Part shown: one piece after another, positions 10,329 through 44,365 of the stretch | How the letters are laid out: every line of letters begins with the position of its first letter | Position numbering within the stretch: the first letter of the stretch is position 1 | Source of the DNA: Shigella phage ESh15 | Sequence record: ON528725 | DNA length: 64,000 bases | Reading direction: 5' to 3' (one strand) | Notes under the pieces: generated by a model | Databases searched by the model: none | What the model saw: the letters and a program-made list of their open reading frames with translations, nothing else | Told to the model about the DNA's origin: nothing | Translations under genes and position numbers: made by a program

Positions 10329-10694
10329 TTAGATATCAAATTCATTAAGAACTACATCAAAGATTGCTTCGAGATGTTCAGGTTTAGCTCGGTTGCTCAG
10401 GATATGACGAATCCAAGTTTTAACCAGAAGTTTACGATTATCACCATTCCAGCAAGGATGAGTACCTAAATCACGCTGACGGAAATCATCATCTAATGCA
10501 ATTTTAAAATTTGAACCTTCCATCGTGATTGAAACCGTGATACCATTTTCAAATCGCATATAAACGTAATTAGGAGTCATGCACTGTTCGATTTCACAAA
10601 CTGTACCGTTTTTGTGTTTCCATAAGCAAATAACTTCAGAAGAACCAGCGATACCGTTAGAAACATATTTACGTTCGAAGTTGATGTAGTTCAT
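10329..10694 (-). CDS. Hypothetical protein, 121 aa
   Basis: Minus-strand ORF preceded by an early promoter cassette. Confidence 0.5.
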   Translation of the reverse strand: MNYINFERKYVSNGIAGSSEVICLWKHKNGTVCEIEQCMTPNYVYMRFENGITVSITMEGSNFKIALDDDFRQRDLGTHPCWNGDNRKLLVKTWIRHILSNRAKPEHLEAIFDVVLNEFDI

Positions 10695-10721: not shown

Positions 10722-10764
10722 GTTGGTACAGGTCTATAATAACATAACCTGTACCAAAGTAAAC
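10722..10764 (-). promoter_or_regulatory. Early promoter cassette with inverted repeat (TTGGTACAGG...CCTGTACCAA) around the -10 region
   Basis: GTTTAC -35 on minus strand; upstream of ORF 10329-10694. Confidence 0.5.
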
Positions 10765-10768
10765 TGTT

Positions 10769-11137
10769 TTATGCAACTTTAATCCAATTGTCTAAATTTA
10801 AAACACCTTTGGCTTTCATTTTTTCGATCAGGTTATCTGCTGTAATGCGTCCATTTTGATACCATGTAACATCTTCAGAGTAACCAGTTTCTTCGTCAAC
10901 ATATGTTTCTGAACGAATTTTACCGGTAATAATAGTTTTTAATTCGTATGTGTCACCTGTGAAAAAGTTTGCTAACACAATTTTCCAAGAGAAATCATCA
11001 GAAGGACCTTCAGGGGTCATACAACTTACGATCTCAAATTGCTCTTTGTATAACATCCACTGGAATTCTTTAATTTCGATAGCTTTATAACCGTCGTGGT
11101 CTTTACATTTGATGTATGAGTTCAGATTGATTTTCAT
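10769..11137 (-). CDS. Hypothetical protein, 122 aa
   Basis: Minus-strand ORF preceded by an early promoter cassette. Confidence 0.5.
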   Translation of the reverse strand: MKINLNSYIKCKDHDGYKAIEIKEFQWMLYKEQFEIVSCMTPEGPSDDFSWKIVLANFFTGDTYELKTIITGKIRSETYVDEETGYSEDVTWYQNGRITADNLIEKMKAKGVLNLDNWIKVA

Positions 11138-14661: not shown

Positions 14662-14664
14662 CCA

Positions 14665-26284: not shown

Positions 26285-26322
26285 GATAGGTCTATAGTAT
26301 CATATCTCAAGGAGAAGTAAAC
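26285..26322 (-). promoter_or_regulatory. Early promoter cassette
   Basis: Plus strand GATAGGTCTATAGTATCATATCTCAAGGAGAAGTAAAC; upstream of ORF 25901-26263. Confidence 0.5.
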
Positions 26323-41901: not shown

Positions 41902-42534
41902 TCACAGTACGTTAGTTACAAGGGTAATGATTTCTTTGGACACATTAGGGAAGTCAATGTAAGTATATTTACCACCGATTTTAATCTTAACATCATTTTC
42001 AAGAGAAGTAAACAGCTTTGATTCAGTTTCTGACATGTTGTATGCAAAGATTCTAAGAGCGCCATCTCGTCGAATTTCAATTTGGCGAATACCTAGAACT
42101 CGTTTTGCAAATCGAACTTCCAAGTTACTACGGTTTTCACCAATTTCTTTAACTTCAACTTTATCTTTAATATTTTCAAAAACAAAGTTTGCTAATTCAT
42201 GCATTTCAGGAGTAACTCCACGTGCTTTTCTGGTGTTACGTTTCTGAAGAAGTTCTGGAGCATTTTCTTGGGCAAAGAGGTCTGCAGCTTTTTGGATAAT
42301 ATCCATTGCTTCGCCTGTTGCTACAAGTCCATCACCGGATTTTTCGACTAAACCTTTCTTAATCAATACACCAATGTTAGAGTTAACAACTGATGCATTG
42401 TATTCTGCTTCCAGAGCTTCACGGACATTGGCAGCAGTGGTGAAGTTGTTCTTAATGATATAAACCATTATTGCAGCAGTTTTTTCATTCAGAGCGTTTT
42501 CAGAAGCTTTGATGATGTAAGTAACTTTAGACAT
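41902..42534 (-). CDS. motA: Middle-promoter transcription activator MotA
   Basis: 210 aa (T4 MotA 211 aa); N-terminal MSKVTYIIKAS and NSNIGVLIKKGLVEKSGDGL match T4 MotA. Confidence 0.9.
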   Translation of the reverse strand: MSKVTYIIKASENALNEKTAAIMVYIIKNNFTTAANVREALEAEYNASVVNSNIGVLIKKGLVEKSGDGLVATGEAMDIIQKAADLFAQENAPELLQKRNTRKARGVTPEMHELANFVFENIKDKVEVKEIGENRSNLEVRFAKRVLGIRQIEIRRDGALRIFAYNMSETESKLFTSLENDVKIKIGGKYTYIDFPNVSKEIITLVTNVL

Positions 42535-42600
42535 TTTATTTCTCCAAATTAGTATTTGTTTTGATAGGTCTATAATATCATGTTTGAAGCAAAAGTAAAC
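42529..42600 (-). repeat. Direct repeat copy 1: motA promoter plus leader
   Basis: About 70 bp nearly identical to 42848-42921. Confidence 0.7.
42565..42600 (-). promoter_or_regulatory. Early promoter cassette upstream of motA
   Basis: Plus strand GATAGGTCTATAATATCATGTTTGAAGCAAAAGTAAAC. Confidence 0.55.
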
Positions 42601-42637
42601 TTTATTTTGGGCTCTTTTTCAAAAGCCCTGGTAAAAT

Positions 42638-42853
42638 TTACAAACTCATTTCTTTAATAAGGCTAATAAGTTTTGCCTTTTTAGAACGAAGCTTTTCTAA
42701 ATGATGTCCATTTGAACCGCGAACAACTAAAGAATTGATTTCAACTTCTAAGAAATTTAATTCTTCAACAAGTGCTTTACGTAGAGCATTCATACCAGGT
42801 TTAACTTTACCGAAACGAGTAGTTGTGTTTTGGGTTAATTTCATTTTAGACAT
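42638..42853 (-). CDS. Hypothetical small protein behind a duplicated motA-type promoter and leader
   Basis: 71 aa; leader and first codons (MSK) are copies of the motA leader. Confidence 0.45.
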   Translation of the reverse strand: MSKMKLTQNTTTRFGKVKPGMNALRKALVEELNFLEVEINSLVVRGSNGHHLEKLRSKKAKLISLIKEMSL

Positions 42854-42921
42854 TTTATTTCTCCAATTTGGTTGTTTTGTTTTGATAGGTCTATAATATC
42901 ATGTTTGAAGCACATGTAAAC
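42848..42921 (-). repeat. Direct repeat copy 2: duplicated promoter plus leader
   Basis: About 70 bp nearly identical to 42529-42600. Confidence 0.7.
42886..42921 (-). promoter_or_regulatory. Duplicate of the motA promoter cassette, upstream of ORF 42638-42853
   Basis: Near-identical copy of 42565-42600. Confidence 0.55.
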
Positions 42922-42947
42922 TGTTTTGTGAGAAAAAATGCACAAAA

Positions 42948-42963
42948 GGGAGCCGAAGCTCCC
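42948..42963 (-). terminator. Intrinsic terminator after gene 52
   Basis: GGGAGC-CGAA-GCTCCC followed by a U-run in the minus-strand transcript. Confidence 0.6.
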
Positions 42964-43039
42964 TAATCGCGATTGTCCAACCAATACAGCCAAATCACTA
43001 GTACAGCTATTGCACCGAGAAATCCTAAGGCTAGGGCAC

Positions 43040-44365
43040 TCAAAGTGCCTCCAAGTCTTTAGTGTACTCTGTCACAACATCAGTAGACTTCCAATACTCA
43101 TTTTCTTCTTTCTTAGCTTTAGCTTCTTCTGCTAGTTTACGTGCTTCATCGGAAGTGATATGGAAGATGTTAAGACCTACCAGTTTATCGACATGTTCTT
43201 TATACATTTCTATTTGTGCTAGCTCTTCAGTCAAAGCTTTACGAGTCTTGCCCTGAATCACAATTTCGCCATTGATAACTTTTTTGATGAAGTGTGCCTT
43301 AGCAAAAGCAAGTTTAAATGCTTTTTCAGATTCAAGGATTTTGTTGTCAATACGTTTCTGAACGTAAGTCTTACGGACTTCAACAAAATCTTTGATTAAG
43401 TCTACTACATTATCGTAGACCGCTAATTTACCCTTTTCATTAATCACTGTGATGTTTTGTGAACGACGTTCGATGAGGCTAAAATCTTTCATGATTTTTT
43501 CATGACGTAGCTCTTCATCGTCTGGAAGCGAGTACTCTTTACGGAACTTCACCTTAAACCCAAAGCCGTGTTCACCACAATCATCTTCCCATGAGATTAG
43601 ACCTTTATCTTCTAATGGGTCAAGAACCTTACTCACATACGTTTCACGGTCGAATTTATATGGTATTTCGGTTATCTGCATTTGAGTACGAGATGTGAAC
43701 TTATATGTTCCGTGAATCTCATAACGCCCATCAACTTCATGCACTTCACCACGGAATTCTGGAAATTCAACTTTTGGCTTAGCGACATTTTTACCTTGAA
43801 GAGCTTGTAATACAGCCTTTTTGACAGATTTAAAACTATGAGGCAGAATATTTGTTGCGTAACCGGTTGCAATACCAGAGACACCATTCAAAAGAACTGT
43901 CGGAATAATAGGAAGATAGAATTTTGGTGGAACGTGTTCTTTATCTTCATGAGCTGGAGCATATTCAGTATCTTTATAGACATTATAGAAATTTTTACTT
44001 ACACGAGCAAAAATATAACGAGATGCTGCAGCTTTTTGGACTGTTCGAGAACCAAAGTTGCCTTGACCATCTAATAGTGGATAGTTGTTATTCCATGTGT
44101 TAGCCATCAATGCACCTGCATCTTGTGCAGAAGATTCACCATGGTGATAACCTAAATCTGCAACACCGCCTGCAATTGACGCAAGTTTATGAAATTTTTC
44201 TTTATTACCACGAGCCAAATCTAATGCACGATGAACCACAAAACGTTGAACCGGCTTAAATCCATCAATCATATTTGGGATTGCACGGTTTTCAACGGTG
44301 TACATCGCATATGCTAAGGCTTCGTTATCAATAATACTTTTTAGATTACGAGAATTCAATTGCAT
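43040..44365 (-). CDS. 52: DNA topoisomerase II medium subunit gp52 (GyrA-like)
   Basis: 441 aa (T4 gp52 442 aa); GyrA N-terminal signature (AMYTVENRAIPNMIDGFKPVQRF). Confidence 0.92.
   Translation of the reverse strand: MQLNSRNLKSIIDNEALAYAMYTVENRAIPNMIDGFKPVQRFVVHRALDLARGNKEKFHKLASIAGGVADLGYHHGESSAQDAGALMANTWNNNYPLLDGQGNFGSRTVQKAAASRYIFARVSKNFYNVYKDTEYAPAHEDKEHVPPKFYLPIIPTVLLNGVSGIATGYATNILPHSFKSVKKAVLQALQGKNVAKPKVEFPEFRGEVHEVDGRYEIHGTYKFTSRTQMQITEIPYKFDRETYVSKVLDPLEDKGLISWEDDCGEHGFGFKVKFRKEYSLPDDEELRHEKIMKDFSLIERRSQNITVINEKGKLAVYDNVVDLIKDFVEVRKTYVQKRIDNKILESEKAFKLAFAKAHFIKKVINGEIVIQGKTRKALTEELAQIEMYKEHVDKLVGLNIFHITSDEARKLAEEAKAKKEENEYWKSTDVVTEYTKDLEAL

Follow-up and report, generated by a model that had tools for sequence, protein, structure and literature searches.

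The question raised by this locus is how a small open reading frame of 71 codons (ORF71) came to lie between gene 52 and motA behind what looks like a second copy of the motA early promoter, and why the two copies are so alike. We addressed it in a stretch of 64,000 nucleotides from Shigella phage ESh15 (ON528725), referred to here as the window. The window phage is a Mosigvirus, an RB69-like T4-type coliphage, and phages LH01, SHSML-52-1 and SA79RD match the locus at 98-99%. The original prediction for this DNA held that a duplication of the motA promoter, leader and first codons had created ORF71 as a second small early gene, leaving a footprint of promoter-mediated recombination.

A precedent for such recombination exists in T4-type phages. 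In a PeSL cassette, an early promoter is combined with a stem-loop and a Shine-Dalgarno sequence, and an ORFan that lies between two PeSLs in phage RB49 corresponds to one chimeric PeSL in phi1 (PMC2839356). In that work, excised mini-circles were detected by inverse PCR, promoter and terminator activities were shown for selected cassettes, the stem-loop was described at five positions in or near the promoter, upstream of the -35 among them, and the resulting model permits both excision and insertion (PMC2839356). The scheme has been extended to T4/PST and KVP40/nt-1 (Comeau et al. 2014, PMC4122927), and neither motA nor RB69 is mentioned in Arbiol et al. 2010 (PMC2839356) or Comeau et al. 2014 (PMC4122927).

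Layout of the gene 52-motA interval

This part of the window has all its genes on the minus strand, in the order gene 52, ORF71, motA and an arn.4-like gene. ORF71 has a promoter of its own and begins 187 nt past the stop codon of gene 52; the features of the interval are as follows.

43040-44365, minus strand: gene 52, encoding the medium subunit of topoisomerase II, 441 aa (ORF list; named gp52 in the annotation of relatives); it is conserved and bounds the variable slot on the left
42963-43043, minus strand: hydrophobic micro-ORF of 26 aa (translation), whose TTG start and the stop of gene 52 overlap in TTGA
42933-42964, minus strand: hairpin A, the predicted gene 52 terminator and stem-loop of cassette A, GGGAGC-UUCG-GCUCCC followed by UUUUGUGCAUUUUUU (RNA fold)
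42845-42921, minus strand: copy A, with -35 GTTTAC at 42916-42921, TG-extended -10 TATTAT at 42893-42898, GGAG at 42861-42864 and the ORF71 start ATG TCT AAA (alignment; promoter scan 10/12 with TG)
42638-42853, minus strand: ORF71 (phrog_6200), an early ORFan of 71 aa and pI 10.35, conserved yet dispensable (ORF list, tblastn, PHROGs, dN/dS 0.21-0.25, AlphaFold model)
42609-42628, minus strand: hairpin B, the stem-loop of cassette B, GGGCUUUU-GAAA-AAGAGCCC, lying past the ORF71 stop and ahead of motA's -35 (RNA fold)
42526-42600, minus strand: copy B, with -35 GTTTAC at 42595-42600, -10 TATTAT at 42572-42577, GGAG at 42542-42545 and the motA start ATG TCT AAA (alignment; promoter scan 9/12 with TG)
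41902-42534, minus strand: motA, activator of middle transcription, 210 aa (ORF list, tblastn), the conserved right flank

The predicted open reading frame at 42638-42853, a basic protein of 71 residues that shares its MSK start with MotA, is correctly described. The micro-ORF translates as MSALALGFLGAIAVLVIWLYWLDNRD if its TTG is read as Met, and is left without annotation in most Mosigvirus records. It occupies the position of T4 motA.1 (49 aa, with an ATGA overlap) and of a 34-37-aa version in Dhakavirus and in G2285.

The T4 motA region resembles that of the window phage in having gene 52, a small membrane ORF, a terminator, an early promoter, a GGAG and a motA starting MSKV, but it has one cassette and no ORF71, and the sequence of its promoter spacer and leader bears no relation to that of the window phage. 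Because motA.1, a predicted membrane or periplasmic ORF, lies in the same 52-motA interval, ORF71 was considered as its counterpart. This was rejected, since ORF71 is basic and soluble-looking, has its own promoter and does not overlap gene 52, and since the micro-ORF fills the motA.1 position. In IME523 (Kanagawavirus), the place directly upstream of motA (664-819 of the locus) is taken by an unrelated ORF of 51 aa, which has a T4-type early promoter to itself. Together with T4 motA.1, this ORF indicates that the slot before motA is variable in several genera.

The two promoter copies compared with the early promoters of the window

We aligned copy A (42921 to 42845) with copy B (42600 to 42526) on the minus strand using MAFFT. 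The two are identical in 70 of 77 columns, the remainder being five mismatches and one 2-nt indel, so that the prediction of two near-identical copies of about 70 bp at these places was borne out. The identity is concentrated in two exact blocks, one of 37 nt, which spans the promoter spacer, the -10 and the transcript start (36 nt of it being GCTTCAAACATGATATTATAGACCTATCAAAACAAA, at 42555-42590 and 42876-42911), and one of 22 nt, TTGGAGAAATAAAATGTCTAAA (42526-42547 and 42845-42866), which reaches from the ribosome-binding site through the third codon. Even when three mismatches are allowed, either block is found exactly twice in the 64 kb, against an expectation of zero from 100 shuffles.

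Since early promoters of T4 type resemble one another, the copies were also judged against all 153 pairs among the 18 such promoters of the window, taking 78 nt of each. The promoters of this family share GTTTAC, TAYTAT and a conserved stretch past the -10, and both copies align with the 16 others, displaying the -35, the -10 and the AT-rich upstream sequence of a PeSL promoter. In each copy, 17 nt separate GTTTAC from a TATTAT that is TG-extended; the leader measures about 35 nt, and the GGAG lies 7 nt ahead of the ATG. A consensus scan recovers both as sigma-70 promoters with an extended -10 (A 10/12, B 9/12). Over the 78 nt the A/B pair is 88% identical, whereas the median of the 153 pairs is 59% (sd 5%) and the next-best pair reaches 76%; likewise, the longest exact run is 37 nt in the A/B pair and 22 nt in the next. 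The likeness of A and B is therefore real, and beyond both chance and the family consensus. Indeed, the identity runs on through the non-consensus spacer, the leader, the ribosome-binding site and three codons. The alignment and the promoter scan also agree with the assignment of the upstream copy to ORF71 and of the downstream copy to motA.

The second most alike pair of early promoters (-35s at 10764 and 11208, minus strand; 76% over 78 nt) lies 444 nt apart, flanks a 122-aa ORF (10769-11137) and precedes a 121-aa ORF (10329-10694); the ORF at 10769-11137 may be another cassette-flanked variable gene. Furthermore, the promoter at 26322 (minus strand) has an exact run of 21 nt, ATAGACCTATCAAAACAAAT, in common with copy B and one of 22 nt in common with the promoter at 14662, runs that point to exchange between further early promoters or to strong constraint on them. 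A scan of IMG/VR for the repeat core returned only 8 contigs, and the GenBank phage set is the better sample.

ORF71 is an old gene found in two genera

ORF71 has a PHROG family of its own, phrog_6200, of unknown function. Searching relatives by tblastn, we found it conserved in 93 phage records, about 75 of them Mosigvirus at 95% identity or more and 17 at 72-77%; those of the latter that were inspected (JS98, VR5, ABTNLsp5) are Dhakavirus. In JS98, VR5 and a Salmonella Dhakavirus, ORF71 is found in exactly this slot, again with the hairpin and accompanied by a second copy of the promoter. It measures 216 nt in three lineages, with a dN/dS of 0.21-0.25 and a dS of about 1.1 (1.13), values like those of motA (dN/dS 0.23, dS 1.05). 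The constant length and the motA-like rates thus indicate that ORF71 and motA co-diverged in place under purifying selection. No copy was found at another locus: each tblastn record has one ORF71, and all that were inspected lie between 52 and motA, so there is no sign of movement between loci.

The distribution of MotA is wider. It matches 1143 phage records by tblastn, including T4 motA, and is present at 95% identity or more in 153, as against about 75 with ORF71 at that level, from which it follows that roughly half of Mosigvirus lacks ORF71. Among phages with MotA at 60-80% identity, ORF71 occurs in 17 of 95 records. By these comparisons ORF71 is a real and old gene under purifying selection, yet dispensable.

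It is here that the original prediction fails in one respect, namely that duplication of the motA promoter created the gene. ORF71 is old and selected, sits in the same slot in two genera and has diverged at synonymous sites as motA has; moreover, in Dhakavirus the leader, the ribosome-binding site and an MNK start are ORF71's own, the Mosigvirus leader and first codons reflecting a later conversion, as described below. In ECCR664, an incomplete 134-kb assembly, an ORF71 variant (1301-1504 of the locus) has a frameshifted C-terminus and a length of 68 aa (ending ...KLRSKRQNLLALLKK); this may be a real variant or a sequencing error.

Relatives without ORF71 carry single, chimeric cassettes

To follow the fate of the repeats, we compared RB69 and 10 more ORF-less Mosigvirus genomes with 8 ORF71 carriers (SA79RD included) and with the Dhakaviruses JS98 and MX01, typing three copy-distinguishing sites in Mosigvirus. 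RB69 lacks ORF71, and its motA-52 spacer is 185 bp, compared with 505 bp in the window, which is shorter by one repeat period. Its single cassette combines the upstream context and spacer of copy A with the leader of copy B. The junctions of the ORF-less Mosigviruses are of the following types, listed with the place of the crossover where one was deduced.

RB69: A-type spacer and B-type leader; crossover in the 37-nt core
PTE-Eco05, ECO111 5-P, F27, mogra, phiC120, FL18, G2285 and ESCO47: A-type spacer and A-type leader joined to the motA codons; crossover in the 22-nt block from ribosome-binding site to ATG
mar008P4 (ORF-less, of the same species as the carrier APCEc01): private variants of APCEc01 copy A; crossover downstream of the leader
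F2: B-type spacer and A-type leader, unlike all other types

The single cassettes thus point to crossovers at no fewer than three different places, and the locus shows the PeSL pattern, in which the ORF lies between two cassettes in one phage and a close relative has just a single, chimeric one. In line with this, the predicted footprint of promoter-mediated recombination is upheld by the alignment, by the chimeric cassettes of the relatives and by the promoter scan.

The Dhakavirus MX01 also lacks ORF71, and there a JS98-type copy A continues through the ORF71 leader and ATG and is fused to motA codon 2. The homology at this junction is AAAATG only, 6 nt, so this event was perhaps mediated by microhomology and not by the cassettes. 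The MX01 motA start (about 790-915 of the locus) has the ORF71-type leader and ribosome-binding site GGAGAUACAAA in place of the usual motA site GGAGAUUAAAA, and the deletion therefore altered motA's own translation start and its putative RegB site.

In neighbour-joining (NJ) trees of both flanks, carriers and non-carriers of ORF71 are fully interleaved, and the two most basal Mosigvirus samples of the left-flank tree, ESCO47 and G2285, are both without the ORF. We infer that ORF71 was deleted independently two or more times in Mosigvirus and at least once in Dhakavirus. These numbers are minima, because ordinary recombination between co-infecting phages may have shuffled existing alleles.

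Evidence for conversion between the copies

Several observations suggest that the two copies of one genome have not evolved independently. One position of the 41-nt core is C in both copies of all 8 Mosigviruses and T in both copies of all 3 Dhakaviruses, and private variants are likewise present in both copies (C/C in JS98, A/A in its close relative VR5, G/G in NHEP11). Differences between A and B within a genome (means of 2.5 and 1.0) are fewer than those at the same position between the genera (4.1 and 3.4). Furthermore, there are mosaics, with a B-type spacer in copy A of APCEc01, UGJNEcP1 and SA79RD and an A-type leader in copy B of UGJNEcP1 and NHEP11. Taken together, these patterns are moderate evidence for gene conversion keeping the copies alike, moderate because the variable sites are few and the 41-nt core is also under functional constraint.

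The beginning of ORF71 itself bears the mark of such an exchange. All homologues outside Mosigvirus have an MNK start with their own leader and ribosome-binding site (GGAGACACAAA in JS98), and the MSK start is confined to the Mosigvirus version. The start region (TIR) TTGGAGAAATAAAATGTCTAAAGTTACT also serves motA in a Klebsiella phage without an ORF71 match, and is therefore native to motA. The ribosome-binding site and first codons of Mosigvirus ORF71 are thus best read as a conversion tract from motA, changing MNK to MSK.

Stem-loops and the comparison with PeSL cassettes

As in PeSL cassettes, a stable hairpin is predicted by RNA folding ahead of each -35 (A, -17.2 kcal/mol, z -2.9; B, -15.3 kcal/mol, z -4.0). 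Hairpin A has a U-rich tail and has been called a rho-independent terminator in the annotation of SA79RD and PhAPEC2 by others. Hairpin B is without a U-tract; a WebGeSTer terminator call exists for it in SA79RD. Its stem keeps 8 of 8 pairs in 10 phages, with one compensatory change from G-C to A-U and one G-U intermediate, the remaining variation being confined to the loop. Our terminator scan of the window called neither hairpin, and its single call was on the opposite strand, inside ORF71. Hairpin B may serve in termination, in attenuation or in RNA stabilisation only.

The locus shares with PeSLs the composite of an upstream stop codon, a stem-loop, an AT-rich stretch, a sigma-70-like early promoter, a Shine-Dalgarno sequence and the start of a small ORFan, and also the setting, a variable intergenic slot among early genes where two cassettes of one phage correspond to a single chimeric cassette in a close relative. 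All sequence-level features of PeSLs are present, and by this comparison the locus is a new example of the mechanism already described for T4-type phages. It differs in that motA, a conserved regulatory gene, owns one of the cassettes, in that conversion carried the homology three codons into coding sequence, and in that many genomes reveal several crossover points along with concerted evolution.

Expression signals common to ORF71 and motA

The RegB/S1 target is an 11-nt single-stranded GGAGRAYARAA, and RegB sites have been mapped in RB69 (PMC1702504). In T4, the motA mRNA is cut by RegB within the Shine-Dalgarno GGAG, which confines the making of MotA to a burst in the first minutes (PMC2988021). 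Both copies of the window phage read GGAGAAAUAAA, which is A-rich, contains no C and matches 9 of the 11 positions of the consensus (A instead of Y at 7, U instead of A at 8); the T4 site is GGAGAUUAGAA. This makes GGAGAAAUAAA a plausible RegB target in both ORF71 and motA. The original prediction that ORF71 is probably co-regulated with motA at the onset of infection is sound as a reading of the sequence, given that promoter, leader, ribosome-binding site and start codon are present in both copies. With these signals near-identical and a plausible shut-off site in GGAGAAAUAAA, ORF71 and motA are probably turned on, and later shut off, in step.

Both copies also have the core of a MotA box, TGCTTCA, in the spacer between -35 and -10 (42576-42594 and 42897-42915, minus strand), which reads TGCTTTA in JS98 and VR5. 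The box-like sequences, TTTTGCTTCA in copy B and CATGTGCTTCA in copy A, end 7 bp before TATTAT. No motif of this type was found in the other 16 early promoters of the window or in the T4 motA promoter. In middle promoters, the MotA box (a/t)(a/t)(a/t)TGCTTtA lies 12 +/- 1 bp upstream of the -10 (PMC2988021), and neither copy has an alternative TAnnnT at 11-13 bp from the box-like motif. That the copies are MotA-dependent middle promoters was therefore rejected, the box lying 7 bp and not 12 +/- 1 bp from the -10 and the T4 motA promoter being without the motif.

The ORF71 protein

The ORF71 protein is basic (14 K+R against 6 D+E) and non-hydrophobic, and its AlphaFold model (pLDDT 76) has a disordered basic tail (residues 1-22) followed by a helical hairpin (23-44 and 50-70). 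No match was found in Pfam (best E 0.079), and a search of 5.8 billion proteins returned 8 clusters, all of its own family. A profile search against 1.84 billion representatives returned its own family and two long repetitive proteins, which we took as coiled-coil noise. With Foldseek, nothing in the PDB scored below E 0.6, and among viral models the only matches were the Bp7 orthologue and two weak ones, to small uncharacterised T4-like proteins. ORF71 is in this sense an ORFan restricted to two genera, which, with its GGAG and ATG, stands downstream of its cassette as ORFans do in PeSLs.

The suggestion that ORF71 is a regulator or host-takeover factor stays a guess, since about half of the genus does without it. 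A more specific version, in which ORF71 is a functional partner of the early-to-middle switch, made in a MotA-like burst and proportion and acting on RNA polymerase, on AsiA/MotA or on nucleic acid through its basic tail and hairpin, we regard as a long shot. If it were true, the TGCTT(C/T)A in both promoters could be an autoregulatory site common to ORF71 and motA.

A model for the locus and its alternatives

Very probably, two cassettes of PeSL type bracket ORF71, and recombination homogenises the copies and deletes the ORF. Each cassette, with its stem-loop, early promoter, leader and GGAG, would be an autonomous immediate-early unit serving either ORF71 or motA, and the direct repeats, 320 bp apart, would be substrates for the phage's homologous recombination. 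Non-reciprocal exchange would keep the copies alike and, in Mosigvirus, would have extended the homology through the motA ribosome-binding site and three codons into ORF71. A crossover between the copies would drop ORF71 and leave one chimeric cassette before motA, the state of RB69 and of about half the genus. In principle, a 320-bp circle could also re-insert and so reverse the step.

The polarity could also be the opposite, with the ORF-less, RB69-like state ancestral and ORF71 inserted, once or several times, by a promoter-carrying mini-circle whose footprint the repeats would be. The PeSL model runs both ways (PMC2839356), the basal samples ESCO47 and G2285 lack ORF71, and so do most phages with MotA at 60-80% identity, which would all fit an insertion. 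Against it, slot, hairpin and cassette layout are identical in two genera, in which the dS of ORF71 (1.13) is on a par with that of motA (1.05), and MX01 and most ORF-less Mosigviruses have an ORF-type leader on motA. Simple integration into a genome of this kind would give copy B an ORF-type leader, unlike that of JS98 or of the window, and the motA-type TIR is ancestral to motA. An original insertion is thus unlikely, and recent re-insertions of ORF71 within a genus are possible.

The tandem arrangement might instead be kept mainly for the dosage of motA, transcripts from copy A reading through past a weak hairpin B with ORF71 as incidental cargo. Such a role would be in keeping with the missing U-tract of hairpin B and with the need for MotA only as an early burst (PMC2988021), but purifying selection on ORF71 is as strong as that on motA, which is not expected of incidental cargo, and half of the genus manages with one promoter; we consider this explanation very improbable. 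Convergence of the copies on the early-promoter consensus, with no recombination at all, is scarcely credible. GTTTAC, TAYTAT and the stretch past the -10 are common property of these promoters, and the promoter at 26322 has its 21-nt run with copy B. Nevertheless, the A/B identity is 88% where the median of 153 pairs is 59%, and it extends beyond the consensus into spacer, leader, ribosome-binding site and codons. The mosaics, the private variants that single genomes carry in both copies, and the chimeric single cassettes of ORF-less relatives also speak against convergence. Recombination between two cassettes that bracket ORF71 is the reading we prefer.

Implications for T4-type phages

The mechanism itself is not of a new kind, and the moderately interesting features of the locus are the involvement of motA's own expression signals, a conversion tract that reaches into coding sequence and several independent deletion junctions. 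The dozens of sequenced relatives reveal several crossover points, conversion and a tract that rewrote the translation start of another gene. ORF71 (phrog_6200) emerges as a conserved but dispensable early gene wired like MotA, and as a reasonable, if low-priority, candidate for functional work. The locus is a clear case from nature of small early genes being gained, lost and homogenised in T4-type phages by way of the phages' own promoter cassettes.
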